Below, piece by piece: positions 11,161 to 45,382 of a stretch of 63,268 nucleotides of DNA. The notes under the pieces were generated by a model. That model ran no database searches, was not told where the DNA came from, and worked only from the letters and a program-made list of their open reading frames with translations. Source of the stretch: Candidatus Pacearchaeota archaeon (GTDB lineage Archaea > Nanobdellota > Nanobdellia > Pacearchaeales > GW2011-AR1); contig JBNLBP010000001.1 in NCBI GenBank assembly GCA_050302495.1, forward strand, positions 1 through 63,268, read 5' to 3'. The number at the start of each line of letters is the position of its first letter. Positions within the stretch are counted from its first letter, which is position 1. The translations under genes and the position numbers were made by a program.

Positions 11161-11161
11161 A

Positions 11162-19229: not shown

Positions 19230-19230
19230 T

Positions 19231-20158: not shown

Positions 20159-20159
20159 T

Positions 20160-20465: not shown

Positions 20466-20544
20466 ATCTTGAAAATGATGATCTTATTTTTAAGGATTGT
20501 TGTATTGGCAAAGATAAATAAATCCGAATTTCCTAATTTGATTT

Positions 20545-23068: not shown

Positions 23069-23986
23069 ATGGCAGAAAGTAAAACAGTACCAAATATTCC
23101 AGAATTTAAGAAAGAAACGGTTAGTGAACTTGGAAAGCTGATGAAAGAAAAGGGAACAATTTTAGTTGCATCAATAAAGAACATTCCAGGAAATCAATTT
23201 CAAGAAATTTCTAAGAAATTGAGAGGAAAGGCTATCGTTAAGGTTCCCAAAAAGAGTTTAATATTTAGAGCTATTGAAGGATTAAAAAATGAAGATTTGA
23301 ATAAGATAAAGGAAAACATAGATGATAGTTTTGCACTTTTATTTTCAGATATTGATGCTTTTGAACTTGCAGGAATACTTTTGAGAAATAAGACTCCTGC
23401 TAAAGCTAAACCAGGGCAGATTGCTCCAGAAGATATAGAGATTGAGGCTGGACCAACAGAACTTCTTCCAGGACCAGCTATTTCAGAGTTGGGAGCTGTA
23501 GGATTGAAAGTTCAAGTTGAAGGAGGAAAATTATCAATTAAGGAAAACAAAGTTATAGTTAAGAAAGGGGAAGAAATATCTCAGAAGGCTGCAGATATAA
23601 TGAGCAAATTGGATATTAAGCCATTCTCAATAGGATTTGTTCCATTATGTGGTTTAGACGTTAAGAATAAAGTATTCTACCAAGAAATTGTAATTGATAC
23701 AGAAGGGACACTTGCAAACTTGAAATATGCTTATGGAAAGGCATTGCCATTTGCTGTTGAAATCGGATATATCTCTAATGACACTGTAAAGGTTATGATC
23801 ATGAAGGCTGGATCACAGGCTAAGAGAATTAATAGAATAATTACTGGTGAGCCTGAAGAGGTTGTTCCTGAAACAGGAGTAGAAGAAGTAAAAGAAGAAT
23901 CAAAAGATGCTCAAGAGAGCACAAGCGAAAAAAAGGAGGAGCCTAAGGCGGACGCTGGTGCTGGACTTAGTGCTTTATTCGGATAA
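23069..23986 (+). CDS. rplP0: ribosomal protein L10 / acidic P0 (uL10)
   Basis: 305 aa; C-terminal acidic tail ending GAGLSALFG. Confidence 0.85.
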   Translation: MAESKTVPNIPEFKKETVSELGKLMKEKGTILVASIKNIPGNQFQEISKKLRGKAIVKVPKKSLIFRAIEGLKNEDLNKIKENIDDSFALLFSDIDAFELAGILLRNKTPAKAKPGQIAPEDIEIEAGPTELLPGPAISELGAVGLKVQVEGGKLSIKENKVIVKKGEEISQKAADIMSKLDIKPFSIGFVPLCGLDVKNKVFYQEIVIDTEGTLANLKYAYGKALPFAVEIGYISNDTVKVMIMKAGSQAKRINRIITGEPEEVVPETGVEEVKEESKDAQESTSEKKEEPKADAGAGLSALFG

Positions 23987-23987
23987 A

Positions 23988-24305
23988 ATGACTAATATAG
24001 TAACTTATTTGCAAGATTTTGGAAAATTAGAAACTGGTAGAAAAGATAACAACAATAATTATTATTGTGAGCTTAAATACGGAAATGAGGTTATAAGGGG
24101 CGAGGGTAAGACCCAAGAAGAAGCTAAGGAGAATTTTGTAAAGAAGGTCAATGGTGAAAGAAATAATCTAATAAGAAAATCTTCAGATTTAGAGTATATA
24201 GCTGAAACAATGGTATCTGTAAAAGACCCTGATAAAGCTACAGATTATATTCTTGATTACTTCAAGACTCAAACTCTCCAAAATAAAATGGAGGGAGGAA
24301 ACTAA
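23988..24305 (+). CDS. small hypothetical protein (YegP/DUF1508-like or dsRBD-like motif) inserted between L10 and L12
   Basis: 105 aa from the internal ATG directly after the L10 stop (the 23907 start would overlap L10 out of frame); motif [30 protein letters not shown]. Confidence 0.5.
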
Positions 24306-24307
24306 AA

Positions 24308-24598
24308 ATGGAATACATCTATGCGGCACTTTTACTGCACAAAGCAGGAAAGGAAGTTAATGAAGCGAATGTGAAAAGTGTTGTTGCGGCTGCTGGTGTA
24401 AGTGTTGATGATGCAAAAATCAAATCACTTATCGCTAGTTTAGATGGTGTGGACATAGACAAAGAACTTGAATCTGCAAGTATGATGTCTGCTGCTCCTG
24501 CAAGTGCTAGTGCACCTGCTGAAGCTAAGAAAGAAGAAGCGCCAAAAGAAGAGAAGAAAGAAGCTGCAGCTGAAGGTCTTGGTGCATTGTTCGGTTAA
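24308..24598 (+). CDS. rpl12: ribosomal protein L12 / P1 stalk protein
   Basis: 96 aa; [18 protein letters not shown]-terminus, Ala-rich hinge, C-terminal [16 protein letters not shown]. Confidence 0.85.
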
Positions 24599-28370: not shown

Positions 28371-28417
28371 AAGGCCCAGTTCTCAAGACTGGTGCACGAC
28401 CGTTATGCGTCGGAGGC
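28339..28417 (-). tRNA. tRNA-Ser (anticodon UGA), long variable arm
   Basis: Minus-strand cloverleaf: acceptor GCCTCCG/CGGGGGC, anticodon stem CCAGT/ACTGG with loop CTTGAGA, 12-nt variable arm GCCTTTTGGCAA, T-arm CCAGG-TTCGACT-CCTGG; no encoded CCA. Confidence 0.75.
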
Positions 28418-28453
28418 GTAATTATAAAATTAAAGAGTAGATTAAAAAGATTT

Positions 28454-32318: not shown

Positions 32319-33275
32319 ATGCCAACAAGAAAATCACCAAGAAAAGGAAGCTTGCAATTTTGGCCTCGAAAGAGGATCAACAAATTTTTGCCTAGAGTTA
32401 ACTGGAGTGCTATTAATTCTGATAAGAAATTGAAGGGATTTGTTGGATATAAGGCAGGGATGGTTTCTGTTGAAGTTAAGGATTTAACTGCCAATTCAAT
32501 GACTAAAGATAAGAAGATAATTATTCCGGCTACAGTTATTGAATGTCCTAAGATGAAAATCTTTTCGGTTAGATTCTACAAAAATGGGGTCGTTAAGAAG
32601 GATGTTTTAGCTGAACAATTCGACAAGGAACTTAAGAAAAAGGTTAAGGTTCCAAAAGAGAATAAATTGAAGCTTGATTCTGTAAAAAGTGAGAATTATG
32701 ATGATGTTTCTGTTATTGCTTATACTGTTGTTAAGAAAACAGGATTGAAGAAGAAACCAGATATGGCTGAAATTGGTATTTCAGGTTCAAGTGTTGATGA
32801 GAAATTAAGTTTTGTTAAAGAGAATTTGAATAAAGAGTTGAGTGTTACGGATTTATTCGCTTCAGGAGATTTAGTTGACTTTAGAGGTTTAACTAAAGGT
32901 AAAGGTCTTGTTGGTCCTGTAAAGAGATTTGGAATTACATTAAAAGCTCATAAGTCGGAGAAAGGTGTTAGAAGACCAGGTAATGTTGGTCCGTGGCATC
33001 CTGCAAGAGTTACTTTTAGAATCCCTATGGCAGGTCAATTAGGGAAGTTTACAAGAGTACATTATAATCAAAAAGTTATTGTAACTGGAAATGATGAAGA
33101 AGTTAAGAAATCTTTGAAAGCGATAAAGAACTATGGAAATGTTAACATGGATTATGTTATTGTTTCTGGTTCAGTTCAAGGTCCAGCAAAGAGACAAGTG
33201 TTTATTACTGCTCCTTTGAGAAAAAGTAAAATGTCTGCAAAGAAGAATTATGAATTCGGGAGAATATTGAGATAA
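32319..33275 (+). CDS. rpl3: ribosomal protein L3 (uL3)
   Basis: MPTRKSPRKGSLQFWPRKR... and FVGYKAGMVSV match uL3. Confidence 0.9.
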   Translation: MPTRKSPRKGSLQFWPRKRINKFLPRVNWSAINSDKKLKGFVGYKAGMVSVEVKDLTANSMTKDKKIIIPATVIECPKMKIFSVRFYKNGVVKKDVLAEQFDKELKKKVKVPKENKLKLDSVKSENYDDVSVIAYTVVKKTGLKKKPDMAEIGISGSSVDEKLSFVKENLNKELSVTDLFASGDLVDFRGLTKGKGLVGPVKRFGITLKAHKSEKGVRRPGNVGPWHPARVTFRIPMAGQLGKFTRVHYNQKVIVTGNDEEVKKSLKAIKNYGNVNMDYVIVSGSVQGPAKRQVFITAPLRKSKMSAKKNYEFGRILR

Positions 33276-33276
33276 A

Positions 33277-33522
33277 ATGGATATTGGAGAATCAATGGCG
33301 AAGAGAAAAATGATTGAAGAATTTAAGAAGTTAGAAATTGTAGCAGAAGCATTTTCTGAGGTTAAGGGGAATGTTGCTAAAGACAAAGATCTTGGGATGA
33401 GGATTGATGAAACAACAGAATTTCATTATAATATTAAAACAAATTATGAAGAAGCAAAGGGAAAATTCGTTGGAGAAGATGGAATGCAATATGCTTTTGA
33501 AATAAGGAGATATAACGATTAA
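33277..33522 (+). CDS. small hypothetical protein inserted between L3 and L4 (YegP/DUF1508-like motif)
   Basis: 81 aa; 1-nt spacers to both neighbours; motif FHYNIKTNYEEAKGKFVGEDGMQYAFEIRRY. Confidence 0.55.
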   Translation: MDIGESMAKRKMIEEFKKLEIVAEAFSEVKGNVAKDKDLGMRIDETTEFHYNIKTNYEEAKGKFVGEDGMQYAFEIRRYND

Positions 33523-33523
33523 A

Positions 33524-34363
33524 ATGAAAACTAAAACATACGATTTAACAGGGAAAGAAAAAGCAGAAATTGCATTACCCAAAGAATTTAGTTCTAAGGT
33601 AAGAGAAGATATTGTTTCTAAAGTTCTTGAAGCTGCAAAGAAACATCAACCTTACTCTCCAAGTCCTGTTGCAGGAAAACAACATTCTGCCAAAGGAAAG
33701 ATTGTACATAGAAGACATGTTTGGAGAAGTGGTTATGGTAGAGGAGCATCAAGAGTACCAAGAAAAATATTCTCACAGAAAGGTTCAAGATTTAATTGGG
33801 AAGCTGCAGAAGTTCCATTCGCAAGAGGCGGTATGAGAGCTCACCCTCCAAAGATAGAACACTTCTTAAAAGAACTTAAGATCAATAAGAAAGAATTAAA
33901 GATTGCTTTTGTATCTGCATTGAGTGCAACAGCTTCTGAAAAATATGTTGTTGATAAATATGCTACAGTAAATAAATTGAATAAAAAAGTGCCATTCATC
34001 TTAACTCTTGGAAATACTGAAAACTTGAAAGTTAAAGATTTACTTAATGGTTTGAAAGGTATGCTTGGAGAAGAACTTTACAATATTGCAATAAAGAAAA
34101 AATCAATTAGGGCTGGAAAAGGAACAATGAGAGGTAGAAAATACAAATCAAATGCAGGTATGCTTTTAGTTGTTGGAAAAGATGAAATTGGAAAAGTAAA
34201 AACTAAAATGTTTGAAGTTGTTTCGGCTGGAGAACTTGGAGTTACAGATCTTGCCCGAGGAGGATTAGGAAGATTAACTGTTTATACTGAAAATTCTGTT
34301 AAAGAATTAGAAAATAAGTTTAATGGTAAAACTGAAAAGAAAGTGGAGGAAAAGAAAAAATGA
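33524..34363 (+). CDS. rpl4: ribosomal protein L4 (uL4)
   Basis: 279 aa; HRRHVWRSGYGRGASRVPR typical of uL4. Confidence 0.9.
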   Translation: MKTKTYDLTGKEKAEIALPKEFSSKVREDIVSKVLEAAKKHQPYSPSPVAGKQHSAKGKIVHRRHVWRSGYGRGASRVPRKIFSQKGSRFNWEAAEVPFARGGMRAHPPKIEHFLKELKINKKELKIAFVSALSATASEKYVVDKYATVNKLNKKVPFILTLGNTENLKVKDLLNGLKGMLGEELYNIAIKKKSIRAGKGTMRGRKYKSNAGMLLVVGKDEIGKVKTKMFEVVSAGELGVTDLARGGLGRLTVYTENSVKELENKFNGKTEKKVEEKKK

Positions 34364-34692
34364 ATAGTGTAGAAATTAAAGTTGTTGAAAATTGGGAAAA
34401 ACCTGAAGTTTTCAGGACTTTAAAAGAAAAAGATTTGATAAGTGATAAAGAAGTTGTATTTGAATCCTTCAAGTTGAGAGGAGAAGGAACTTCTTTAATT
34501 CATACGCTCCAGAGAGTCAAGCCAGGAATTGTGAAGGTTAAAAAATATTATTTTGAATCAGGTAAATTGAGCAGTAACGCAGGAGTGGATTATTGGACCA
34601 ATTCACTGGATATAGGATATAATCCAGAAGCAAAATCAGATCAAATACTTTATGATGCAGAAGATAAATTCCTAAGAGAGGCAGGATTATGA
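34360..34692 (+). CDS. small hypothetical protein inserted between L4 and L23
   Basis: 110 aa; ATGA overlaps at both ends; motif KKYYFESGKLSSNAGVDYWTNSLDIGY. Confidence 0.55.
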   Translation: MNSVEIKVVENWEKPEVFRTLKEKDLISDKEVVFESFKLRGEGTSLIHTLQRVKPGIVKVKKYYFESGKLSSNAGVDYWTNSLDIGYNPEAKSDQILYDAEDKFLREAGL

Positions 34693-34925
34693 GACCAATA
34701 GCAACTGAAAAAGCAGTAATGAAAATTGAAGCAGAGAATGTAATGACCTTTGAATTTGATAAAAGAATGAATAAAGAGGACATTAAGAAAGAAATTGAAG
34801 AGCTTTTAGATGTTAAAGTTGATTCGGTTAAAACGCAAATAAGAAAGAACAAGAAAATTGTTTACGCTAAATTAAATAAGAAGAACCTTGCAATTGATCT
34901 TGCAACTAAATTAGGAATGATGTAA
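34689..34925 (+). CDS. rpl23: ribosomal protein L23 (uL23)
   Basis: 78 aa; typical uL23 size and basic beta-rich sequence. Confidence 0.85.
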   Translation: MRPIATEKAVMKIEAENVMTFEFDKRMNKEDIKKEIEELLDVKVDSVKTQIRKNKKIVYAKLNKKNLAIDLATKLGMM

Positions 34926-34926
34926 A

Positions 34927-35625
34927 ATGGGAAAGAGAATAATACAACAGGCACGGGGAAAGGGAAGTTCAACTTATAGAGTTAAGAGAAAAGCTTTCAG
35001 TCACAAAATCCAATATCCAAGAGGATTAACTGGAGAAGGAAGAATTGTAAAGTTATTCTTAACTGGTGGACATAGTGCTCCGCTTGCAAAGATAAACTGG
35101 TCTGGAGAGAGTTTTTATGTTCCTGCATTCAAAGGAATGGTTCAAGGAGAGAAGATTAATTTTGATTCAAAAGAAATTGTTAAAGGAAGTATCCTTGAGT
35201 TAGGAGATATTCCACTTAAGACAAAGATATTTTGCATTGAATCGAGACCTGGAGATGGTGGAAAGTTCATAAAGACTGCAGGAAGTTCTGCAGAAGTTGT
35301 TAGAAGGGTCGGCAAAAATGTTCATGTATTAATGCCGTCGAAAAAAGAAAAACCTTTTAACCCGAAATGTCGGGCTATTATTGGTGAAGCTGCTGGTCAT
35401 GGTAGAACAGACAAACCAATAATGAAAGCTGGAAAGCAACATCATATTAAGAAAGCAAAAAGTAAATTATGGCCAAGAACAGGTGCATTGAAAGTTAATG
35501 CTATCGATCATCCTTTCGGTTCAGGTAGAGGAAAGAACCCTAAGAGCAAGATTGCAAAGAGAAATTCAGCTCCTGGTCAAAAGGTTGGTTTATTGAGACC
35601 AAGAAGGACAGGTAAGAGAAAGTAA
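34927..35625 (+). CDS. rpl2: ribosomal protein L2 (uL2)
   Basis: 232 aa; GRNSAPGQKVGLLRPRRTG and conserved His region match uL2. Confidence 0.9.
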   Translation: MGKRIIQQARGKGSSTYRVKRKAFSHKIQYPRGLTGEGRIVKLFLTGGHSAPLAKINWSGESFYVPAFKGMVQGEKINFDSKEIVKGSILELGDIPLKTKIFCIESRPGDGGKFIKTAGSSAEVVRRVGKNVHVLMPSKKEKPFNPKCRAIIGEAAGHGRTDKPIMKAGKQHHIKKAKSKLWPRTGALKVNAIDHPFGSGRGKNPKSKIAKRNSAPGQKVGLLRPRRTGKRK

Positions 35626-35626
35626 A

Positions 35627-35995
35627 ATGGAAATGAAATTACAAACAACTGGAATAAAGTATGAAAATCTAGTTGGAAAAGGATTAGAACTTTTTTGTGA
35701 AAGTGCGGTCAATAAAGATGAAAATGTTGTGGGAAGGTATCTTCCTGGAATTGAGGGACAAGAGATAACCTATTTAGGAAATTTAGGACATAGATTCGGA
35801 GAAAGAGATTTATTTGGATTTGAAGAAGACAATAAATTGACTGTCCTTGTTGGAAACATAAAAGACATTACTGGAAACAGGGCAACGTTAAGCACCTTTG
35901 TTCAAAGCATTTCCCCAAATTTTTACGGAACTGAAAATTTGAGTGATGAGATTTTAAAACAATGCAAAGAGATTTTGTCAGGAGTAAAAGAATAA
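35627..35995 (+). CDS. small hypothetical protein inserted between L2 and S19
   Basis: 122 aa; 1-nt spacers on both sides; Gly-rich, no TM. Confidence 0.5.
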   Translation: MEMKLQTTGIKYENLVGKGLELFCESAVNKDENVVGRYLPGIEGQEITYLGNLGHRFGERDLFGFEEDNKLTVLVGNIKDITGNRATLSTFVQSISPNFYGTENLSDEILKQCKEILSGVKE

Positions 35996-35996
35996 A

Positions 35997-36401
35997 ATGG
36001 TAGATATAGGATCACAAAAGAAACAATTCAAGTATCGAGGCAAAGATATTGAAGAGTTGAAGGCTTTAGATACTCGAGAGGTTGCAAAATACCTTGATTC
36101 GAGAGCTAGAAGAACTGTACTTAGAAACTTCCAAGAAATTGAGGATTTCCTTCAGAGAGCTAAGAGAAAACAATCAAAGAATAAGAAGATTAAAACTCAT
36201 AAGAGAAAATTGATAGTTGTTCCTCAAATGGTTGGAATGCAAATCCAAGTACATAACGGAAGAATGTTTATTCCAATTGAGGTTGTCCCGGAGATGATCG
36301 GACATTATTTGGGAGAATTTTCATTAACAAGGGCAAAAGCTTCACATAGTAAATCAGGAGTTGGTGCTACTAAGGGTAGTAGAGCCAAATCCAAGAAGTA
36401 A
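35997..36401 (+). CDS. rps19: ribosomal protein S19 (uS19)
   Basis: 134 aa; HNGRMFIPIEVVPEMIGHYLGEFSLTR matches uS19. Confidence 0.9.
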   Translation: MVDIGSQKKQFKYRGKDIEELKALDTREVAKYLDSRARRTVLRNFQEIEDFLQRAKRKQSKNKKIKTHKRKLIVVPQMVGMQIQVHNGRMFIPIEVVPEMIGHYLGEFSLTRAKASHSKSGVGATKGSRAKSKK

Positions 36402-36406
36402 GTAAA

Positions 36407-37018
36407 ATGACAGAAAAACAATACGCTCCAAGTGCTAAAGAAAAGAAGATGTCTACAAAGAAAGTAGAATCCCCAGTAGCAGAAGCTCCTAAAAAGGTTG
36501 AAGCTAAAGAAAATAAAACTGAAGAGAAAAAAGTTGAAGAAAAGAAAACAGAAGTAAAGCAACCTGTTAAAGTTACAAAAGTTAAGAAAGATCTTGCTGT
36601 AGTTAATGCAAACAATTCAAAAGTTTCATTAAAATATGCAATAAGCATTTGTAAATTCATTAAAGGCAAAAGAATTGGCGATGCGATAAGAGATTTAGAA
36701 GCAGTTGTTGTTAAGAAAAAGGCAGTTCCAATGACTGGAGAGTATGCGCATAAGAAAAGTGTAAAGAAATATGCATCAGGTGCTGGAAAATACCCTGTTA
36801 ATGCTGCAAAGGCTTTCCTTGTGTTGGTTAAAAGCCTTTTAGGAAATGCTAATGCAAATGACATAAATGAACCTGTAATCACTGAATGTATTGCAAACAA
36901 AGCCCCCAAACCAATGGGAAGATTTGGAAGATGGGAAAGAAAAAGATGCCACATCAAATTGGTTGCAAGAGAAATTAAAGTTAAAGAGAATAAAGCTAAG
37001 ACAGAGGAAAAGAAATAA
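36407..37018 (+). CDS. rpl22: ribosomal protein L22 (uL22) with ~55-aa Lys/Glu-rich N-terminal extension
   Basis: C-terminal 150 aa match uL22; N-terminal KKVEAKENKTEEKKVEEKK low-complexity extension. Confidence 0.85.
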   Translation: MTEKQYAPSAKEKKMSTKKVESPVAEAPKKVEAKENKTEEKKVEEKKTEVKQPVKVTKVKKDLAVVNANNSKVSLKYAISICKFIKGKRIGDAIRDLEAVVVKKKAVPMTGEYAHKKSVKKYASGAGKYPVNAAKAFLVLVKSLLGNANANDINEPVITECIANKAPKPMGRFGRWERKRCHIKLVAREIKVKENKAKTEEKK

Positions 37019-37019
37019 A

Positions 37020-37712
37020 ATGGAAGAAAAACAAACTGTAAAATTCAAGAAGGAAGACTTTGCTATAAAGGAAATCATAAGAAAGACAATTGGAAAGGGA
37101 AAGATGAGCAGAGTTAGAATTGAATATACTCCGGTTGGAGAAAAAGTAATAATCTCCACAGATAAACCAGGTTTGGTTATTGGAAGGGGTGGAGAGAGTT
37201 TGAACGAATTAAGTGATATGCTTAGAAAGAATTTCAAATTCCAAAATTTACATATTGAAATTGAAGAAATAAAAGAACCTGAATTTGACTCTCAAACTAT
37301 TGCAGATGAGATTGCTTTAGGTTTAGAGAGAGCTGGACCATTAAAGTTCAAGGTTATTGCTTACAGAACACTTGAGAAAGTGATGAAAGCGGGAGCATTA
37401 GGTTGTGAAATAAGATTAAGCGGAAAACTTCCAAGTTCAAGAGCTAAGACATGGAGATTCGCTCAAGGATATTTAAAGAAAACAGGAGACTCTGCAAAGG
37501 TTGTAAGTCGTGCTCAAGCAAGAGCTGAGACTAAGCCGGGAACTGTGGGAGTTAAGGTTAGTATATTATCACCGCATGCAATATTGAAAGATAGAATAAA
37601 GATCAACGAAGATTTGATAAACCAGTTGAAAGAAAACGCTGAAAAATTAAATGAAGTTCCAGAGAAGAAAACTAAGAAAAAAGCTAAGACTGCTAAGGAG
37701 AGTAAAAAATGA
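37020..37712 (+). CDS. rps3: ribosomal protein S3 (uS3)
   Basis: Start at ATG 37020 directly after the L22 stop (the 36891 start overlaps L22); KH motif VIGRGGESLNEL; Lys-rich C-tail. Confidence 0.9.
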   Translation: MEEKQTVKFKKEDFAIKEIIRKTIGKGKMSRVRIEYTPVGEKVIISTDKPGLVIGRGGESLNELSDMLRKNFKFQNLHIEIEEIKEPEFDSQTIADEIALGLERAGPLKFKVIAYRTLEKVMKAGALGCEIRLSGKLPSSRAKTWRFAQGYLKKTGDSAKVVSRAQARAETKPGTVGVKVSILSPHAILKDRIKINEDLINQLKENAEKLNEVPEKKTKKKAKTAKESKK

Positions 37713-37903
37713 AACACTCAGAAGTAAAGAAATTAAGTAAGACAGACAGAGATAAGAAATTAAAAGAACTAAAGTTGGAATTAGTTAAAGAAAACGTATC
37801 AAAGCAAGGCGGAAATAAATCTGCTAAAATAAGAAAAATAATCGCAAGAATACACACACTCAACAACATGGAAAATAAACCCAAGGAGTTGAATAACAAA
37901 TAA
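37709..37903 (+). CDS. rpl29: ribosomal protein L29 (uL29)
   Basis: 64 aa helical, KLKELKLELVK pattern; ATGA overlap with S3. Confidence 0.8.
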   Translation: MKHSEVKKLSKTDRDKKLKELKLELVKENVSKQGGNKSAKIRKIIARIHTLNNMENKPKELNNK

Positions 37904-37907
37904 AACA

Positions 37908-38207
37908 ATGGAAATAGATCCAAAAACAGGATTGCCAGTTCAGGCAATGGAGTGGGAAGACCTTGCAAAGGGTTCCCAAAAAATACGGGTAACGACCGAT
38001 AAAAAAAGATACGGAAAGATCGTTACTCTAGTGAGTGGTTTCGACAAAGGAATCGACATAAAGAAAACCGCAAAGGCATTGAAGAATGAACTTGCGTGTG
38101 GCGGGACCTTTAAGGACGATGCAGTTGAACTGCAAGGAGACCACACAAAGAAAGTAAAGCAAGTCCTTGTAAAAATGGGATTTGACGAAAGCTCCATAGA
38201 AGACTGA
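37908..38207 (+). CDS. sui1: translation initiation factor SUI1 (aSUI1/eIF1)
   Basis: 99 aa; IRVTTDKKRYGKIVTLVSGF...LACGGT matches the SUI1 fold; canonical position after L29. Confidence 0.8.
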   Translation: MEIDPKTGLPVQAMEWEDLAKGSQKIRVTTDKKRYGKIVTLVSGFDKGIDIKKTAKALKNELACGGTFKDDAVELQGDHTKKVKQVLVKMGFDESSIED

Positions 38208-38225
38208 AGAGGTGAAAAATAAAAA

Positions 38226-38570
38226 ATGGAAAGTAAGAAAATGAAAAAAACAGAAGTAAAAGAATCAAAAATAGTTGGAACTGAAAAGAGTATAAACCCA
38301 AGAGGAAAGATCTTCGAGGGAGTTGTAACAGCAAAGTTCCACAAGAGAATAACAATCGAATTCGAAAGAATGGTTTATATTAGAAAGTATGAAAGATATG
38401 CAAAGTCGAAGACAAAAATCCATGCAAGACTCCCAGTTTCAATGGAAAACGAAGTTAATGTTGGAGATTTGATAAGAGTTCAAGAGTGTAGACCTTTAAG
38501 TAAGATAATCCATTTCATCGTGGTTAAGAAATTAAAAGATGCTTCAGAAATTTTAGGAGGAAAGAAATAA
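38226..38570 (+). CDS. rps17: ribosomal protein S17 (uS17)
   Basis: 114 aa; GKIFEGVVTAKFHKRITIEFERMVYIRKYERY matches uS17. Confidence 0.9.
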   Translation: MESKKMKKTEVKESKIVGTEKSINPRGKIFEGVVTAKFHKRITIEFERMVYIRKYERYAKSKTKIHARLPVSMENEVNVGDLIRVQECRPLSKIIHFIVVKKLKDASEILGGKK

Positions 38571-38571
38571 G

Positions 38572-38973
38572 ATGAAAGCAATAAGTTCAAGAGCTACAGA
38601 AGGATTGAATTTGGGGGCAATAATGGTTGCTGCAGACAATAGTGGGGCTAAAGTTGTAAAATTAGTTTCGGTTAAGAAAGCTAAAGCTAAGAAGGGAAAA
38701 CAAGTTGCTGGAAAGATTGCTGACTGGGTTAAAGTATCCGTAAGAAAAGGTGTTCCAGATATGAAAGGAAAAGTGTTTGATGCAGTAATAGTTAGACAGA
38801 AAAAACCATGGAGAAGGAATACGGGGGAGAGAGTTGCATTTGAAGATAACGCTGTTGCAATCTTGAAAGACGATAAAGGTAATCCGAAAGGAACTCAAAT
38901 TAAAGGACCAATTGCAAGGGAGGTTCAGGAGCGATGGCAATCTGTTGCTAAAATAGCTCAAACTGTTTATTAA
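38572..38973 (+). CDS. rpl14: ribosomal protein L14 (uL14)
   Basis: 133 aa; LNLGAIMVAADNSGAK matches uL14. Confidence 0.9.
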   Translation: MKAISSRATEGLNLGAIMVAADNSGAKVVKLVSVKKAKAKKGKQVAGKIADWVKVSVRKGVPDMKGKVFDAVIVRQKKPWRRNTGERVAFEDNAVAILKDDKGNPKGTQIKGPIAREVQERWQSVAKIAQTVY

Positions 38974-38974
38974 A

Positions 38975-39472
38975 ATGAAGAACAAATTTTCAACAAAATG
39001 GAAGGCAAGTAAGAGACCTTCAAAGCAGAGAAAGTATTTAGCAAATGCTCCTTTACATATAAAGGCAAAACTAGTTAGCGTAAATCTTGCAAAACCTCTT
39101 AGAAAGACTTCAGAAAAGAGAAATGTTCCAGTAAGAAAGGATGACAAGGTAAAGATTATGAGAGGTAAATTCAAAGGGAAAGAAGGAAAGGTTTTGAGTG
39201 TAAGTACAAAATATTCAAAAGTAATTGTCGAAGGAATAACAATCAAGAAAATGGATGGTTCACAAGCAAATGTTCCATTAAAACCTTCAAACTTACAGAT
39301 AATTGAGATGACAGATAGAAAACAAAAAGCAGTTTCTGAGAAGAAGACTGAAGTAAAAAAAAGAGTCTCTGAAACAAAGTCTCAGGACTCATCCGCTGTA
39401 GCGACGTCGAACGAAACACCTAAAAAGGAAGTTAAAGAAGTAAAAGATAAAGGTAAGGAGAATAAAAAATGA
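38975..39472 (+). CDS. rpl24: ribosomal protein L24 (uL24) with Lys-rich C-terminal extension
   Basis: KOW motif KDDKVKIMRGKFKGKEGKV; ~50 extra C-terminal residues. Confidence 0.85.
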   Translation: MKNKFSTKWKASKRPSKQRKYLANAPLHIKAKLVSVNLAKPLRKTSEKRNVPVRKDDKVKIMRGKFKGKEGKVLSVSTKYSKVIVEGITIKKMDGSQANVPLKPSNLQIIEMTDRKQKAVSEKKTEVKKRVSETKSQDSSAVATSNETPKKEVKEVKDKGKENKK

Positions 39473-40119
39473 AACATCTAAAGAGAGAAGTAGTACCAAA
39501 GAGTTGGCCAGTTCCAAGGAAAGGAACAACTTTTGTAGTTAGATCTAACTCAAATCCTGAAAAGGGTGTTCCAATGTTGATATTCCTTAGAGATATGGTA
39601 AAGGTTTCTCAAAATAGAAAAGAAGTGAAGAGAGCTTTAGTTAACAAGAATATTCTAATTAATGGAAAATACGTTTCAGATGAGAAAAACGCAGTTGTAT
39701 TACTTGATGTTGTTACAATTGTTCCATCAAAGAAATATTTCGTTCTTGATTTAACAGAAAACGGAAAGTTCGTTGCTAGAGAAATATCTGAGAAAGAGTC
39801 AATGAATAAAGTTTCAAAGATTACCGGAAAGAAATCTCTAAGAGGGAAGAAAACTCAAATTAATTTGATAGACGGAAGAAATTTCATCTCAAATGTAAAA
39901 TGTGTAGTAGGAGATTCTGTTTTGATTGATTTCAAAGGAAATAAAATTGAGAAATGTGTTCCATTGAAAGATAAAGCGAAAGTAATTATTTTTGCAGGAA
40001 AACACGCAGGAATGAAAGGAGAAATAGAAAAGATTGACGAGGAAAGAAAGATGGCTTCAGTGTCTTCAAATGGAGAAAAAATAAATGTTCTTGTTGAACA
40101 ACTAATGGTAACAGAATAA
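39469..40119 (+). CDS. rps4e: ribosomal protein S4e (eS4)
   Basis: 216 aa; MKHLKREVVPKSWPVPRKGTTFVV matches eS4. Confidence 0.9.
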   Translation: MKHLKREVVPKSWPVPRKGTTFVVRSNSNPEKGVPMLIFLRDMVKVSQNRKEVKRALVNKNILINGKYVSDEKNAVVLLDVVTIVPSKKYFVLDLTENGKFVAREISEKESMNKVSKITGKKSLRGKKTQINLIDGRNFISNVKCVVGDSVLIDFKGNKIEKCVPLKDKAKVIIFAGKHAGMKGEIEKIDEERKMASVSSNGEKINVLVEQLMVTE

Positions 40120-40120
40120 A

Positions 40121-40639
40121 ATGGCAGAAGAAAAAACTGAAAAAGTAAACCCTATGAATGAGGTTAAAATTGAAAAGGTAGTTTTAAGCATAGGTGGGAC
40201 TGGAGATTATTTGGATAGAGGTTACAGATTGTTGAAATATCTTACAGGAAAGAATCCTATGAAGACAAAGGCTCAGAAAAGAATTCCAGCATGGGGGGTT
40301 AGACCTGGTTTGGAAGTTGGAGCAACAGTAACATTAAGGAAAGATGCTATTGATTTTTTGAAGAGAATGTTGGTTACAATAGATAATAACTTGAAAAAGA
40401 AGCAAGTAAGTGAAAATAGTCTTTCATTTGGAATAAAAGAGTATATTGAAATACCTGATGTAGAATATCAAAGGGATATCGGTATAATGGGGTTCGATGT
40501 AACAATAACATTTAAGAGATCAGGAAGAAGAGTTAAATTAAGAAAGATAAAATCTGGAAAAGTTGGAAAAAAACAGATTATAAAGAAGGAAGAAATAGTA
40601 AAATATATGGAGGATAATTTCGGAACGGAATTTATATAA
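40121..40639 (+). CDS. rpl5: ribosomal protein L5 (uL5)
   Basis: 172 aa; NPMNEVKIEKVVLSIGGTG matches uL5. Confidence 0.9.
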   Translation: MAEEKTEKVNPMNEVKIEKVVLSIGGTGDYLDRGYRLLKYLTGKNPMKTKAQKRIPAWGVRPGLEVGATVTLRKDAIDFLKRMLVTIDNNLKKKQVSENSLSFGIKEYIEIPDVEYQRDIGIMGFDVTITFKRSGRRVKLRKIKSGKVGKKQIIKKEEIVKYMEDNFGTEFI

Positions 40640-40640
40640 A

Positions 40641-40907
40641 ATGGCAAATAAAATAACTTTAAAGAATAGGGAGAAATTGAGGGAAGAGCTTGAGAAGTTA
40701 GTTGTACAAGTTGATGAGATAAACGACTTCATGGGGCAGTTACCTCATAACAATCATGGGCAGGCAACTAGGAGCTTAAACCCTAAGAAAGGTGAATATT
40801 TAAGTCACTTTGATGGAAATAGCGAAGGCATAGTTGGAAAATATCGTTCAAAAAATGGAGAGGTTTATACTATTAGCGTATCAAAAGAATACGGAGGTGG
40901 AAAATAA
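40641..40907 (+). CDS. small hypothetical protein inserted between L5 and S14 (YegP/DUF1508-like motif)
   Basis: 88 aa; 1-nt spacers to both neighbours; N-terminal helix then GIVGKYRSKNGEVYTISVSKEY. Confidence 0.55.
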   Translation: MANKITLKNREKLREELEKLVVQVDEINDFMGQLPHNNHGQATRSLNPKKGEYLSHFDGNSEGIVGKYRSKNGEVYTISVSKEYGGGK

Positions 40908-40908
40908 A

Positions 40909-41139
40909 ATGACAGCAAGCAATTACGAAAAGATGTTGAAGCAATTAAGAAGCAAACCTGCAAAGATGCAGAGATACTTGAAGCACAATAAGCCAAAAAC
41001 TAGAACTACTGGTAAGGCTTTGAGAAGATGTGAACAGACGGGACAATTCGGAGGACACATAAAAATGTACGGATTGAACTTATGTAGACAGGCATTCAGA
41101 GAAATAGCGGAGGAATTAGGATTTAAGAAATACTCTTAA
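40909..41139 (+). CDS. rps14: ribosomal protein S14 (uS14), zinc-free variant
   Basis: Internal start MTASNYEKMLKQ... directly after the upstream stop; C-terminus YGLNLCRQAFREIAEELGFKKY matches uS14, but the CxxC pairs are RRCEQTG / LCRQAF (Zn ligands lost). Confidence 0.8.
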   Translation: MTASNYEKMLKQLRSKPAKMQRYLKHNKPKTRTTGKALRRCEQTGQFGGHIKMYGLNLCRQAFREIAEELGFKKYS

Positions 41140-41153
41140 ATTGCAAAAGTAAA

Positions 41154-41534
41154 ATGAGTCACGATGTTGTAGCAGATGGATTGAATATGTTGAGAAATGC
41201 AGCTGTAGCTGGAAAAGAAACCGTGAAGATAAATAGAATCTCAAATGTTTTGATAGAAGTTCTTAAAATAATGAAGCAAGATGGAGCAATAAAGAAATAT
41301 AAAATAGATTCTGAAGATAAATCTCTTACAGTTACAATAGACAAATTAGATGAATGTAAGGCAATAAAACCAAGATTCACTTGTGATGTTTCGCAAATAG
41401 AGAACTATAGAAGAAGATATCTTCCAGCAAGAGATGTTGGAACAATGATACTTTCTACAAACAAAGGGTTAATGACTCACAAAGAGGCAACAGAAGAAAA
41501 TATTGGAGGATGCCTAATTGCATATTTCTATTAA
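41154..41534 (+). CDS. rps8: ribosomal protein S8 (uS8)
   Basis: 126 aa; DGLNMLRNA N-terminus and C-terminal GGCLIAYFY match uS8. Confidence 0.9.
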   Translation: MSHDVVADGLNMLRNAAVAGKETVKINRISNVLIEVLKIMKQDGAIKKYKIDSEDKSLTVTIDKLDECKAIKPRFTCDVSQIENYRRRYLPARDVGTMILSTNKGLMTHKEATEENIGGCLIAYFY

Positions 41535-41535
41535 A

Positions 41536-42078
41536 ATGAAAAAACCTTTATCAAAAATAATTGAAATTCCTGAAGGAGTGGAAGTTGCTCTAGATGGAAG
41601 AGATGTTAAGGTAAAAGGCCCAGAAGGAGAGATAACTAAAGATTTTGATTTTGGGACTTTAGATATTGTTATCAAAGATGGAAAGATAGAATTAAGCCAT
41701 AAAAGTGCAACAAAGACTGAAAAGAGAACAATGAATACTTTTGCAGCGCATATACTAAACATGATTAAAGGTGTTCAAGAGAAATTCGAATATACGCTTA
41801 AGGTTGCTTCAAGCCACTTCCCTATGACTGTGAAGGTAGAAGGAAACATTGCAACAATAAAGAATTATTACGGAGAAAAAACTGATAGAAAAACAAAAAT
41901 TCCGAAAGGAGTTGAGGTAGAAGTTAACAAAGATTCAATTGTTGTTAAGTCTGTTGATAAAGAACTTGCAGGTCAGGCTGCAGCAAATTTCGAGAACGCT
42001 ACAAAAGTTAGAAATAGGGATAGAAGAATTTTCCAAGATGGAATTTACATAACTAAAAAACACGATAAAGCTATTTAA
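41536..42078 (+). CDS. rpl6: ribosomal protein L6 (uL6)
   Basis: Start MKKPLSKIIEIPEGVEV immediately after the S8 stop; two-domain uL6 pattern. Confidence 0.85.
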   Translation: MKKPLSKIIEIPEGVEVALDGRDVKVKGPEGEITKDFDFGTLDIVIKDGKIELSHKSATKTEKRTMNTFAAHILNMIKGVQEKFEYTLKVASSHFPMTVKVEGNIATIKNYYGEKTDRKTKIPKGVEVEVNKDSIVVKSVDKELAGQAAANFENATKVRNRDRRIFQDGIYITKKHDKAI

Positions 42079-42083
42079 TTAAA

Positions 42084-42488
42084 ATGACCGAAAAGAAAAA
42101 ACCAAATTTCAAGAGAAAGGACTCACACAAGTATTCTAAGCTTGGAAAGTCAAGAAAGAATAAACAGAAGTGGAAGAAACCTACTGGAAGAGATAACAAA
42201 ATGCGTGAGAAGAAGAAGGGTCATCCAGCGGTTGTTTCAATAGGGTATAAGACAAACACTTCAATAAGAGGAAAAGTGGAAGAAAAGAAACCAGTTTATG
42301 TTTACAACATCAAGGATTTGGAAAATGTAAACACAAATGAAATTGTAATTGTTGGAAATGTTGGGATGAAGAAGAAAGTAGAAATTACAAAGGTTGCAAA
42401 AGAAAAGAAAATCAAAATAAAAAACATTAATGAGAAAAAATTAATGAAGAAAGTTAAGAAAAAAACAACTAAGGAGAGTAAAAAATGA
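42084..42488 (+). CDS. rpl32e: ribosomal protein L32e (eL32)
   Basis: 134 aa; FKRKDSHKYSKLGKSRKNKQKWKKPTGRDNKMR matches eL32. Confidence 0.85.
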   Translation: MTEKKKPNFKRKDSHKYSKLGKSRKNKQKWKKPTGRDNKMREKKKGHPAVVSIGYKTNTSIRGKVEEKKPVYVYNIKDLENVNTNEIVIVGNVGMKKKVEITKVAKEKKIKIKNINEKKLMKKVKKKTTKESKK

Positions 42489-42952
42489 ATTTGAGATCAA
42501 AGAAGGAGCTAGCTGCAAGAACATTCAAGGTTGGTAAAGAAAGAATTACTTTCATTAAAGAAAGATTGGATGAAGTAAAAGAAGCTATAACTAAACAAGA
42601 TATGATTGGTTTGGAGAAAGACGGAGCAATAAAGGTAAAGGAAGTAAGTGGGAGAAAGAAGGTACATACTGTAAGAAATAGAAGCCCAGGGAACGTAAGA
42701 AAGAAGGTTAACACTAGAAAAAGGGACTATGTTATCATGACTAGAAAGCTTAGACAACACGTTAGACACCTTAAATCCAATGGAGAATTAAGCCCTGAAG
42801 AAGTTAAAGAAATAAGAAAAAGAATAAGAAACAAAGGATTTAAGAGTAAAGCACATATGAAAGAACAGATAGCAACAAAGAATTATTCCTCTGTTCAAGT
42901 ATCAGGAAAATCAAAAAATAAAAAAACTAAATCAAGTAAAAAGAAAAAATGA
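42485..42952 (+). CDS. rpl19e: ribosomal protein L19e (eL19)
   Basis: 155 aa; LRSKKELAARTFKVGKERI N-terminus typical of eL19. Confidence 0.85.
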   Translation: MNLRSKKELAARTFKVGKERITFIKERLDEVKEAITKQDMIGLEKDGAIKVKEVSGRKKVHTVRNRSPGNVRKKVNTRKRDYVIMTRKLRQHVRHLKSNGELSPEEVKEIRKRIRNKGFKSKAHMKEQIATKNYSSVQVSGKSKNKKTKSSKKKK

Positions 42953-43437
42953 AAGTACAAAAACGAAGAAGAAGAGAAAATAAGACAGACTATCTTAAGA
43001 GAATGAAGCTTCTTAAGAGCGCAAAGCCAAGAGTAGTATTCAGAAAAACAAACAAATATGTTATTGCGCAATATGTTGTTAGTGATGAAGCTAAAGATAA
43101 AGTTGTATTTGGAGTAAGTTCAAAAGATTTGTTAAAGAAAGGTTGGGATGAAAATGCTAAAGGATCTTTGAAGTCAATACCTGCAACATATTTAACAGGG
43201 TATTATGCTGGTAAAAAAATCTTGAAAGAAGGGCTTGAAACTCCAATAGTGGATTTAGGTATGATAAAAACTTTACATAAAACAAAGGTTTTTGCTTTTA
43301 TCAAAGGTTTAATTGATTCTGGAGTAGAAATTGGATCAAAAGAAGAAGCATTCCCTGAAGAAGAAAGAATAAATGGAGAAAGTTTAAAGAACAAGGTAGA
43401 CATTCAAAAAATTAAATCAAGTTTAGATAAAGAATAA
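42949..43437 (+). CDS. rpl18: ribosomal protein L18 (uL18)
   Basis: 162 aa; RRRRENKTDYLKRMKLLKS...PRVVFRKTNKYVIAQ matches uL18. Confidence 0.85.
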   Translation: MKVQKRRRRENKTDYLKRMKLLKSAKPRVVFRKTNKYVIAQYVVSDEAKDKVVFGVSSKDLLKKGWDENAKGSLKSIPATYLTGYYAGKKILKEGLETPIVDLGMIKTLHKTKVFAFIKGLIDSGVEIGSKEEAFPEEERINGESLKNKVDIQKIKSSLDKE

Positions 43438-43438
43438 A

Positions 43439-44305
43439 ATGACCGAAAAAGAACTTAATAAAAAAACTGCAGAAGCATACAAAGATAATTTGAATACTGA
43501 CGCGGAAGAAGCTACAGAGAAAATGATAAAGGATGAAGAAAATGATGAATATGCAGAAGTTCCTGAAGAAGTTTTAGATGAGAAAGAACTTAAGGAATTA
43601 AAAGAGATGGAAAAGGACACTAAGAAGCCTGGAAGGGACAGAAGAGATAGCGCTCCTGCAGAAGCATGGTCTCCTATTACAAAGTTAGGGGTTGCTGTAA
43701 AAGAAGGAACAATCAAAGATATTGATGAAATTATTGAGAAAAAAATGAAGATCCTTGAACCAGAAATAGTTGATAAATTAATACCTGTTGAATCAGATTT
43801 AATTTCTATAGGGCAATCTAAAGGTAAGTTTGGTGGTGGAAAAAGGAGAGCATGGAGACAGACTCAAAGAAAAAAGAAGGAAGGAAATGTTGCTACATTC
43901 TCAGCTATGGCCGTTATTGGCGATGGTAATGGTCATGTGGGTATTGGAACAGGAAAGTCTACAGAGACTCTTCCAGCAAGAGATAAAGCTACAAGAAAAG
44001 CTAAAATTAATGTAATAAAAATTATTAGGGGGGATGGAAGTTTCGATTCTGTTGGAGGAGGAAATACAAGTATTCCATTCAAAGTTTCAGGTCAAGCAGG
44101 AAGTGTAAGAATTACTTTAATGCCTGCTGCTCCAGGTACAGGTCTTGTTGCAGGGGATGAAATGAAGAAGATACTTAGAATTGCAGGAATAAAAGATATA
44201 TACTCAAAAACAGAAGGAAAATTGTCTACAAAGTTTAACCTTGCAAAAGCAACAATAGATGCACTTAAGAAAACAAATCCTTTGTATAAGAGGGCAAAAC
44301 AATAA
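43439..44305 (+). CDS. rps5: ribosomal protein S5 (uS5) with ~65-aa acidic N-terminal extension
   Basis: Core AEAWSPITKLG...GKFGGGKRRAW...; extra N-terminal D/E/K-rich segment. Confidence 0.85.
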   Translation: MTEKELNKKTAEAYKDNLNTDAEEATEKMIKDEENDEYAEVPEEVLDEKELKELKEMEKDTKKPGRDRRDSAPAEAWSPITKLGVAVKEGTIKDIDEIIEKKMKILEPEIVDKLIPVESDLISIGQSKGKFGGGKRRAWRQTQRKKKEGNVATFSAMAVIGDGNGHVGIGTGKSTETLPARDKATRKAKINVIKIIRGDGSFDSVGGGNTSIPFKVSGQAGSVRITLMPAAPGTGLVAGDEMKKILRIAGIKDIYSKTEGKLSTKFNLAKATIDALKKTNPLYKRAKQ

Positions 44306-44306
44306 A

Positions 44307-44669
44307 ATGAAAATCGCAGTAATAAGGATAAAAGGAATGGTTGGACTAAAAACAGACATAGCTGAGACTTTGGATAGATTAAGATTGAGAAGAAAATATG
44401 CGTGTGTGGTTATAGAAGATACACCAGAGAATTTAGGAATGATAAAGAAGGTTGGAGACTTTGTTGCACATGGCCCTATTGATGAAAAAACCTACAAAGA
44501 ATTAGTTGATAAGAGAGGAAAGAAAGATTCTGAAGGCAAACTTAAACCATTCTTTAGATTGCACCCTGCTAGAGGCGGAATGGAAACTAAAAAACACTTT
44601 GGAGTGGGTAAAGGAGTTTTAGGAAATAATAAAGATAAAATAAATGAATTAATAGGGAGGATGTTGTGA
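44307..44669 (+). CDS. rpl30: ribosomal protein L30 (uL30)
   Basis: Internal start MKIAVIRIKGMVGLK directly after the S5 stop; uL30 ferredoxin-like pattern. Confidence 0.8.
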   Translation: MKIAVIRIKGMVGLKTDIAETLDRLRLRRKYACVVIEDTPENLGMIKKVGDFVAHGPIDEKTYKELVDKRGKKDSEGKLKPFFRLHPARGGMETKKHFGVGKGVLGNNKDKINELIGRML

Positions 44670-44670
44670 A

Positions 44671-44889
44671 GTGTCCGAGTACTATAAGGGCAAAAAAATT
44701 AATGGCGAGCTTATTTGCGGAGTGAGTGATCAGGGAAACTACAATCCTATAATTACAACCGTTTCAAAGTCAGAGGACGAGAATTTAAGGAATACTTATG
44801 TTCTCAAAGAAGACATCCTTGAGTTTGTCAAGGCCGATCCGCTAACAGACAAACAAGCTAGAAATTACATAAACAAATCAAAAAGATAA
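44671..44889 (+). CDS. small hypothetical protein inserted between L30 and L15 (YegP/DUF1508-like motif), GTG start
   Basis: 72 aa; GTG start 10 nt after GGGAGG; motif YYKGKKINGELICGVSDQGNY; locally GC-richer codons. Confidence 0.5.
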   Translation: MSEYYKGKKINGELICGVSDQGNYNPIITTVSKSEDENLRNTYVLKEDILEFVKADPLTDKQARNYINKSKR

Positions 44890-44890
44890 A

Positions 44891-45382
44891 ATGGCGCAAA
44901 GAACACATAAAAGAAAAAAATCAACAAGATACCATGGAAGGAATATGGGTACTTCTAGCAATGGTTCTAGAAAAACACATAGAAGTTCAGGTAATAAAGG
45001 TGGAACGGGATTATCTGGTACTGGAAAGAGAGCAGACCATAAGAAAACATTGATAAACAAATTATACGGAAATAATTACTTTGGGAAACAAGGAATTACC
45101 TCTAAGAAGACTCAGAGAGATAAGAGATTAAGAATAACTCTTTCTCAAATAATGAATAACCTTGAAAGCTATGGAAAAAAGACTGCAAAAGGTTGGGAAA
45201 TTGATTTAAGCAAGTACAAAATACTTGGTAAAATTGAAGTTAAGGAAAAATTAATAATAAAGGCTCTTGAAGCATCAAAAGGAGCAATTGAATCGGTTAA
45301 GAAATCTGGTGGAGAGATAGTTTTGCCTGTTCCTAAAAAGAAGGTTGAAGTCAAAAGTTCCGACGATGGCAAAGAAGAATAG
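44891..45382 (+). CDS. rpl15: ribosomal protein L15 (uL15)
   Basis: 163 aa; Gly/basic-rich N-terminus TRYHGRNMGTSSNGSRKTHRSSGNKGGTG typical of uL15; precedes secY. Confidence 0.85.
   Translation: MAQRTHKRKKSTRYHGRNMGTSSNGSRKTHRSSGNKGGTGLSGTGKRADHKKTLINKLYGNNYFGKQGITSKKTQRDKRLRITLSQIMNNLESYGKKTAKGWEIDLSKYKILGKIEVKEKLIIKALEASKGAIESVKKSGGEIVLPVPKKKVEVKSSDDGKEE

Follow-up and report, generated by a model that had tools for sequence, protein, structure and literature searches.

Closely spaced orphan reading frames at the junctions of ribosomal protein operons in Pacearchaeota-like archaea

In this study, we analyzed a stretch of 63,268 nucleotides (nt) from Candidatus Pacearchaeota archaeon (GenBank assembly GCA_050302495.1, contig JBNLBP010000001.1, positions 1 to 63,268 of the forward strand; hereafter, the window), in which six small open reading frames (ORFs), here called inserts A to F, are wedged between genes for universally conserved ribosomal proteins (r-proteins). 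Our results indicate that these inserts are probably unrelated, fast-evolving accessory genes that carry no promoter and occupy the junctions of core translation operons, and that this arrangement is a trait shared across the Pacearchaeota-like DPANN radiation. The functions of the inserts are probably diverse. In 67 non-redundant Pacearchaeota-like loci, 89 of 681 r-protein junctions (13%) hold an ORF coupled to its neighbours in this way, and the genes found there, which we refer to as cargo, differ from one strain to another.

All six ORFs were found precisely at the positions given for them in a preliminary description of this DNA, which had been made from the sequence alone (Table 1). The genes on their flanks were identified with Pfam as those of L3, L4, L23, L2, S19, L5, S14, L30, L15, and L10; the identity of L12 was taken from its homologue in a relative (locus L076), which is labelled Ribosomal_60s. 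The tight spacing reported earlier was also confirmed: inserts A, C, D, and E are separated from the neighbouring genes by 1 nt on either side, insert B shares an ATGA overlap with each of its neighbours, and the spacers of insert F measure 1 and 2 nt. The G+C content of the inserts (0.31-0.37) matches that of the neighbouring genes in a genome with 33% G+C. Their isoelectric points (pI), which range from 4.9 to 8.9, make them acidic to neutral proteins, whereas nearly all of the adjacent r-proteins have a pI above 9.2. In addition, we identified a further insert, H, which did not appear in the earlier list and which overlaps both of its minus-strand neighbours, Spt5/NusG (13375-13824) and L11 (12418-13023). 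The genes of Spt5 and L11 are normally adjacent in archaea. No match to insert H was found in Pfam, PHROGs, or PADLOC. The ftsZ - spt5 - L11 cluster to which these neighbours belong lies on the opposite strand, apart from the L1-L10-L12 operon.

Table 1. Features of the window and of related loci. Positions are those of the window; homologous cargo in relatives is named by locus and junction.
Feature	Position	Strand	Basis or remark
Host operon, L3 to L15, r-protein supercluster of the S10-spc type	32319..45382	+	Pfam, junction analysis
L10 - F - L12 segment of the L1-L10-L12 operon	23069..24598	+	Pfam; L12 via its homologue in L076
Insert A, 81 amino acids (aa), L3-L4 junction	33277..33522	+	Orphan, pI 5.1
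Insert B, 110 aa, L4-L23 junction, ATGA overlap at either end	34360..34692	+	Orphan
Insert C, 122 aa, L2-S19 junction	35627..35995	+	One true homologue
Insert D, 88 aa, L5-S14 junction; GGAGGTG at the 3' end, upstream of the S14 start	40641..40907	+	
Insert E, 72 aa, GTG start, L30-L15 junction	44671..44889	+	Weakest coding signal of the six
Insert F, 105 aa, L10-L12 junction; predicted beta-beta-beta-alpha unit, like that of a double-stranded RNA-binding domain (dsRBD), in the N-terminal half	23988..24305	+	Homologue, AlphaFold2 model
Insert H, 121 aa, unknown ORF, Spt5/NusG-L11 junction, overlaps both neighbours	13013..13378	-	Absent from the earlier list
TAAAATG stop-start motif (example)	33273..33279	+	Also at 33520, 35623, 35993, 40637, 40905, 44887, 23984
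L036 S17-L14 and L048 L5-S14			Homologous cargo, 43% identity over 128 aa
L029 L4-L23 and L034/L041 L22-S3			Homologous cargo
L020 S17-L14 and L052 L5-S14			Homologous cargo
L050 S8-L6 and L071 L14-L24			Homologous cargo
L020 L3-L4 and L036 S3-L29			Homologous cargo
L011 L14-L24 and L011 S4e-L5			Paralogues in one operon, 58% identical

The relatives were collected by a metagenome scan based on the r-protein S4e, which yielded 73 further loci whose S4e is 48-69% identical to that of the window over the matched segment. We mapped 23 r-protein genes in them by tblastn; an ORF was counted as an insert if it was 60 aa or longer and began no more than a few bases from the stop codon of the preceding gene. 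As stated in the preliminary description, the junctions are usually contiguous: in four loci (L012, L023, L028, and L044), none of 22 junctions is occupied. At the other end of the range, 8 of 20 junctions are filled in L041 and 11 of 18 in L011 (positions 1029-11452 of a metagenome contig), the most extreme case, and on a tree of concatenated r-proteins, loci of high and low occupancy appear as sister branches. Occupancy is also uneven between junctions, with a chi-square p of 1.7e-10 that ignores the phylogenetic non-independence of the loci. The most frequently filled junctions are L30-L15, which ranks first (11/22), L3-L4 (7/19), L2-S19 (8/23), and S17-L14 (11/38), and those never filled in the relatives are S19-L22, L29-SUI1, SUI1-S17, and L6-L32e. 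The five S10-spc junctions that carry inserts in the window are filled in 26% of the relatives, versus 10% for the remaining junctions. The sole relative among the species-representative genomes, Candidatus Pacearchaeota archaeon RIFCSPHIGHO2_02_FULL_33_14 (S4e 57% identical), has four inserts, namely a 218-aa DEDD exonuclease at L4-L23 and unknown ORFs at L22-S3, L14-L24, and L30-L15, and has none at L3-L4, L2-S19, or L5-S14.

Comparison of these loci reveals that cargo has been gained, lost, duplicated, and moved between junctions over short evolutionary time. The DNA of loci L022 and L032 is 97-99.7% identical, yet L032 contains two more inserts, at L24-S4e and L30-L15, and parsimony with L025 as the outgroup favours their gain in L032 over two independent losses. 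The identity between both loci falls from 99.65% to 96.9% exactly at the L24-S4e insert, near position 9990, which suggests homologous recombination through the conserved flanks, with a breakpoint that coincides with the cargo. More clean pairs of empty and filled alleles exist in the complex formed by L008, L048, L052, L065, and L017. Movement is evident in six family cases in which clear cargo homologues sit at differing junctions, one of them within a single operon (Table 1).

The inserts of the window show the same pattern. Among 1.84 billion representative proteins searched with HMMER, insert C has one true homologue (P0002, 117 aa, 42% identity, E=1.5e-18), which is encoded at L23-L2 in locus L075, one junction off from its position in the window. 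In this locus, L3, L4, and L23 are 69-81% identical to those of the window, the L3-L4 junction holds a 90-aa ORF unrelated to insert A, and the L4-L23 junction is empty. The matches of insert C to two giant proteins (P0003 and P0004) were discarded, as they are sums of 11-13 weak matches to a strand motif, G-x-IKD-xx-GN-x-ATL, and do not represent homology. Insert F also has one homologue (P0012, 61% identity), and a search of 5.8 billion proteins with insert B returned insert B alone. Scans of viral contigs with inserts C and F and the recent insert of L032 gave nothing, in a scan that detects close relatives only. In the relatives, vertically shared cargo is still recognizable, at 42-56% identity, where the r-proteins themselves are just 67-70% identical. 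For this reason, inserts A, B, D, and E, for which the same junctions of the relatives hold no match, are more likely to reflect separate acquisitions than divergence beyond recognition. Cryptic homology between inserts of the same junction was considered and rejected, given that no excess similarity is left once the clear homologues are removed (p=0.46).

Several lines of evidence show that the inserts are real protein-coding genes and not spurious ORFs. First, in 20,000 composition-preserving shuffles, the frame stayed open in 0-5 cases for inserts A, B, C, D, and F and in 68 cases for insert E. Second, under a codon-usage model derived from the genes nearby, the annotated frame scored highest of the six possible frames in every ORF, with insert E giving the weakest signal. 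Finally, where homologues are available, the ratio of nonsynonymous to synonymous substitution rates (dN/dS) is low: 0.19 for insert F and P0012, which are 61% identical next to an L12 and an L10 that are 86% and 81% identical, respectively; about 0.5 for insert C and P0002, a value obtained with saturated dS from an alignment that is collinear end to end; and 0.15-0.46 for the cargo families of the relatives. The cargo is thus under purifying selection, yet it diverges far faster than its neighbours, as illustrated by pairs in which cargo and neighbouring genes are 82% versus 98% or 57% versus 94% identical. One more small ORF of the window, ORF G (24710-25033, plus strand), encodes an acidic protein of 107 aa without a family match; it lies 111 nt 3' of L12, is not coupled to it, and its exact sequence is missing from a public protein collection that includes its neighbours and all six inserts, the latter on two NCBI contigs (268 and 232 kb).

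The way in which the inserts fit into the operons is highly regular. Across the operon, genes are joined either by TAA-A-ATG or by a 4-nt ATGA overlap. The TAAAATG motif is present in 44 copies in the window, versus about 30 expected, and approximately 18 of them are operon junctions; it flanks inserts A, C, and D on both sides, insert F only upstream, and insert E only downstream. In the whole set, 48 of 94 inserts begin in this context. In addition, the last 24 nt of 37 of the 94 inserts include a strong Shine-Dalgarno-like motif, as compared with 75 of 1099 internal windows (inserts D and F, for example, end in GGAGGTG and GGGAGG), and because this motif lies in their 3' ends, the residues GG(G)N/K recur at the C termini. 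When a filled allele is compared with its empty counterpart, the difference amounts to precisely one ORF and one junction. In three cases, L5-S14 and L14-L24 of L048 and S17-L14 of L061, the 3' end of the insert is a 16-34 nt copy of the 3' end of the upstream gene together with its junction. Despite these few duplications, target-site duplication was rejected as a general signature, with an overall p of 0.18. We also rejected an origin by tandem duplication, by which an insert would combine the 5' part of the downstream gene with the 3' part of the upstream one: the insert interiors match neither neighbour, and homologues are found at other junctions.

With respect to expression, a promoter or terminator belonging to the insert would not fit into spacers of 0-2 nt, and a consensus scan, restricted to bacterial signals, found nothing above chance level. 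The Rfam scan detected no RNA element in the inserts. Experiments in archaea have demonstrated that genes which overlap or are separated by very short spacers are translationally coupled through termination-reinitiation (PMC6728339, PMC10666635). From the sequences, we infer expression by coupling, spread through the flanks, and selection for seamlessness. Since they have no promoter spacer, the inserts would share the r-protein transcript, and their translation would depend on termination-reinitiation at UAAAAUG or AUGA. The last codons of an insert would regenerate the junction, often with a Shine-Dalgarno motif, and so hand the ribosomes over to the next r-protein gene, whose essential expression would thereby be preserved. 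As an essential operon should tolerate no insertions other than seamless ones, the perfect fit of the inserts would then be explained. The cargo may spread between strains by homologous recombination within the conserved r-protein genes on either side, and short junction homology or duplication of a junction may create new sites.

Concerning the nature of the cargo, its median length is 102 aa, half of the proteins are acidic, and 12% have a pI above 9.5. Clustering leaves mostly singletons, and Pfam domains are present in only about 4 of 91 cargo ORFs, comprising RNase_T exonuclease (twice), HATPase_c, and a weak receiver domain. The inserts of the window match no toxin or antitoxin model of PADLOC or Pfam. 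A toxin-antitoxin pair formed by HEPN and nucleotidyltransferase (MNT) proteins is located at L15-SecY in L052 (16356-17023) and only in this locus, and the same junction holds inserts of 2.5-3.3 kb in L022, L025, and L032, with large ORFs of 240-541 aa and hydrophobic N-termini. A further feature occurs in two versions, 47% identical to each other, at 4375-5031 in L001/L043 and at 2174-2833 in L069.

Orphan genes are not confined to the junctions: outside both r-protein operons, 18 of 40 scanned genes of the window have no Pfam match, and the r-protein operon is not obviously enriched for orphans but merely not spared by them. On the minus strand, a tightly coupled array with TAAAATG junctions (18915-20711; 104, 195, 116, 101, and 73 aa) lies outside the conserved clusters, and only its 195-aa protein matches anything, weakly (NT5C-like). 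The runs of genes for 145-319 aa at 583-2979 (plus strand) and 6205-8494 lack a Pfam match in 8 of 10 scanned members. The region from 47 to 58 kb, on the other hand, is fully annotatable, with prefoldin, an IF-2B family protein, glycosyltransferases, an epimerase, and a SIS-domain protein. All cargo homologues that we detected map inside r-protein clusters or to their margins (389 kb sampled), with none elsewhere in 199 kb of flanks; this is only suggestive of a preference of the cargo for these clusters, given that shared ancestry inflates the count.

Insert F raises the question of whether some of the inserts, although unrelated to each other, are genuine new factors of translation or ribosome biogenesis that need co-expression with their neighbours. 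Its homologue P0012 sits at the identical junction, L10-L12, in L076, where the gene is retained with the low dN/dS given above. The AlphaFold2 model of insert F, obtained from the single sequence without an alignment, is of moderate confidence (predicted local distance difference test, pLDDT, 72.9; predicted template modelling score, pTM, 0.66) and shows a short helix, three strands, a long helix, and then two further helices. This prediction has the alpha-beta-beta-beta-alpha order that defines the dsRBD, with a core of three strands and a helix after a short helix, as in PF00035 (dsrm) and also in the N-terminal domain of HicB; its top structural neighbours in three structure libraries were dsRBDs and never YegP, the family to which the preliminary description had likened it. 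The match to the Pfam dsrm model itself is below threshold (13.7 bits, E=0.097, for a gathering cutoff of 23). By inspection, the long helix begins with KTQEEAKEN and not with a basic patch of the KKxAK type, and the protein is acidic (pI 5.2); both features argue against classical binding of double-stranded RNA. We describe insert F as a predicted dsRBD-like protein that may bind either RNA or protein. In L076, an additional ORF of 115 aa (621-968) is present between L10 and the homologue of insert F; its last approximately 40 nt and the C-terminal half of its product resemble this homologue (BLASTP E=0.006 in a small database), and it is probably a diverged tandem duplicate.

In favour of such new factors, unknown ORFs in archaeal r-protein clusters have previously turned out to encode S4e, L32e, L19e, SUI1, and RNase P subunits. 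Moreover, the products of coupled gene pairs are often subunits of a single complex (PMC10666635). That some of the inserts are new translation factors nevertheless seems unlikely to us: strains differ in occupancy, homologous cargo adjoins different r-proteins, an exonuclease, a HATPase, and a receiver-like protein are found among the cargo, and insert F is acidic and lacks the helix start of dsRBDs that bind double-stranded RNA. Furthermore, 14 of 54 listed loci have no coupled insert, and five of those 14 show 17-22 junctions.

A second alternative is a dedicated mobile system in which an enzyme acting in trans integrates promoterless cassettes and duplicates the junction, either in the manner of integrons or casposons or by homing. 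The uneven occupancy of the junctions, with those of the window filled more often than the rest, speaks for it, as do the 16-34 nt local duplications that flank some of the inserts (L048, L061) and the restriction of the detected cargo homologues to r-protein clusters. However, neither the 91 cargo ORFs nor the window ORFs tested with Pfam contain an integrase, transposase, or homing-nuclease domain (GIY-YIG, HNH, LAGLIDADG, and similar), and no integrase turned up in the Pfam scans of the window genes, which left out about 15 long genes. The inserts have no terminal inverted repeats or attC-like repeats, and the repeats that were found correspond to the gene-junction consensus. The duplications vary from 2 to 34 nt, the similarity of the flanks does not exceed the junction consensus overall, and orphans are equally frequent outside the operon. 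In view of these results, we regard a dedicated mobile system as improbable. The earlier suggestion of a selfish gene family that targets r-protein operons is partly supported in spirit, in that the cargo of the relatives is variable and hops between junctions; the cargo is not a single family, however, and the equal frequency of orphans outside the operon lends no support to specific targeting.

The third alternative is the one preferred in the preliminary description, according to which the six ORFs are paralogues of the YegP/DUF1508 family (PF07411) that share a sequence motif and act as lineage-specific proteins associated with the ribosome or translation. Apart from the coupling with r-protein genes, what recommends it is small size and, for insert F alone, a beta-beta-beta-alpha unit followed by helices, which superficially resembles the motif given in that description. 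None of the ORFs A to F, nor ORF G, has a Pfam match to DUF1508 at E<=10 (hmmscan), and none of the 91 junction ORFs of the relatives has one at E<=0.01. NCBIfam, PHROGs, and PADLOC gave nothing meaningful for the window ORFs, with no PADLOC match below E=0.038, and phmmer searches of inserts F, E, and D against all chains of the Protein Data Bank at E<=10 returned only weak unrelated matches, with no protein of the YegP type among them. The structure model of insert E (AlphaFold2, pLDDT 48.5) is unusable. All-against-all comparisons with BLASTP and phmmer revealed no significant pair among the six. The peptides from which the shared motif was built do occur in the ORFs, but their likeness is not above chance: the best common ungapped block of 10-30 residues, which differs from that motif, is equalled or beaten in 7-16% of shuffles. 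Similarly, the inserts have neither the fixed position nor the basic composition of ribosomal proteins, their occupancy ranging from 0/22 to 11/18 and their pI from 4.9 to 8.9, and in close relatives they are missing or their junctions hold unrelated ORFs. A family of six YegP-like ribosome-associated paralogues is thus very improbable. The profile similarity on which that proposal depended is lacking, both among the six ORFs and to DUF1508; its other foreseen failure, spuriousness of the ORFs, did not occur, as they look like real genes.

Finally, that the inserts are non-functional or newborn ORFs, arising from translated spacers or junction expansion with an irrelevant protein sequence, is hardly credible: inserts A, B, D, and E are indeed orphans without a detected relative, and for insert E the codon signal is weak and the structure model of low confidence, but long open frames are very improbable by chance in an AT-rich genome, all families with at least two members have a dN/dS below about 0.5, the interiors show no similarity to neighbouring genes, and insert F is predicted, with moderate confidence, to fold even without an alignment.

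It is important to consider the points that weigh against our own interpretation of the inserts as unrelated accessory genes. No insertion machinery or intermediate was found. All relatives were sampled through a single pattern search derived from S4e, the junctions were counted from tblastn high-scoring segment pairs, and the loci are phylogenetically non-independent. Inserts A, B, D, and E have no homologue in any of the 76 loci, and insert B is also alone in the large protein database; the case for these four as functional proteins is made from ORF statistics and codon usage. Insert F, which is kept at one junction under purifying selection and has a predicted fold of an RNA-binding type, could be a genuine translation-related factor. 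Tested over 93 inserts, the flanks show no significant similarity apart from the generic motif (p=0.18 by local alignment, 0.036 ungapped), and the six inserts of the window show no flanking repeats beyond this motif.

Comparison with known systems helps to delimit the phenomenon. Classical phage morons come with a promoter and a terminator of their own, and their base composition is often deviant; the inserts described here, in contrast, have no spacer, share the G+C content of their neighbours, would be expressed through coupling, and reside in a cellular core operon. The resemblance concerns the accessory-gene architecture of morons, which are extra genes between conserved genes of phage operons (PMC4378225): in both cases, single and mostly unknown genes lie between otherwise adjacent genes, and the cargo varies between genomes and is dispensable to the function of the host operon. 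Integron cassettes are likewise promoterless single ORFs that depend on an upstream promoter and have orphan, strain-variable cargo, but the inserts lack attC-like repeats and are dispersed over an essential operon instead of being stacked at attI. Unlike free-standing homing endonuclease genes, they have no nuclease domain of the homing type. Non-ribosomal residents of archaeal r-protein clusters are also known, including Hsp20 in some Asgard genomes (PMC10833476). Together with SUI1/eIF1, RNase P Rpp29, adenylate kinase, and SecY, Hsp20 resembles the inserts in being a non-ribosomal gene that is embedded in the S10-spc cluster and shares its transcription; these residents, however, belong to known families and are conserved over phyla at fixed positions, whereas the inserts are orphans that vary in strain and position. 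Searches for this arrangement in a literature library, which is incomplete and so gives no proof of novelty, brought up no account of orphan inserts that vary between strains at the r-protein junctions of DPANN archaea.

Some additional observations were made on the window. Three of its r-proteins appear extended when compared by eye with those of relatives: at the N terminus, L22 (36407-37018, 203 aa) carries a long lysine-rich extension and S5 (43439-44305, 288 aa) an acidic one of approximately 80 aa, and L24 (38975-39472, 165 aa) has a long C-terminal tail. ARAGORN called a tRNA-Ser (TGA) at 28338-28418 on the minus strand, which overlaps the listed TTG start of the ORF at 27615-28370; Rfam at the gathering threshold gives only a tRNA-Pro, at 12312-12385.

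Beyond the interpretation of the inserts as accessory genes, we tentatively consider a stronger proposal, possible rather than probable, in which core operons act as a platform for gene capture and expression, with a process that regenerates or duplicates the junction and places single promoterless orphan genes at stop-start junctions. If this were true, the most conserved gene array would also be among the most variable loci, and the strongest constitutive transcript would serve to express functions that evolve fast and that may concern host interaction or defence.

The S10-spc array is the textbook example of a gene order that is frozen in both Bacteria and Archaea, and binning and phylogeny make use of it as such. 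In the archaea studied here, up to 11 of 18 of its junctions are filled with orphans, and strains of one species differ, which means that even this operon tolerates rapid gene gain where the insertion is seamless for translation. These observations are a warning for annotation and for pipelines that concatenate marker genes. The conserved flanks make the inserts easy to recover from metagenomes, so that their turnover is measurable in natural populations, and the junctions offer a natural system to study the expression of promoterless genes, the constraints of termination-reinitiation, and the origin of the "dark matter" proteins of DPANN archaea.

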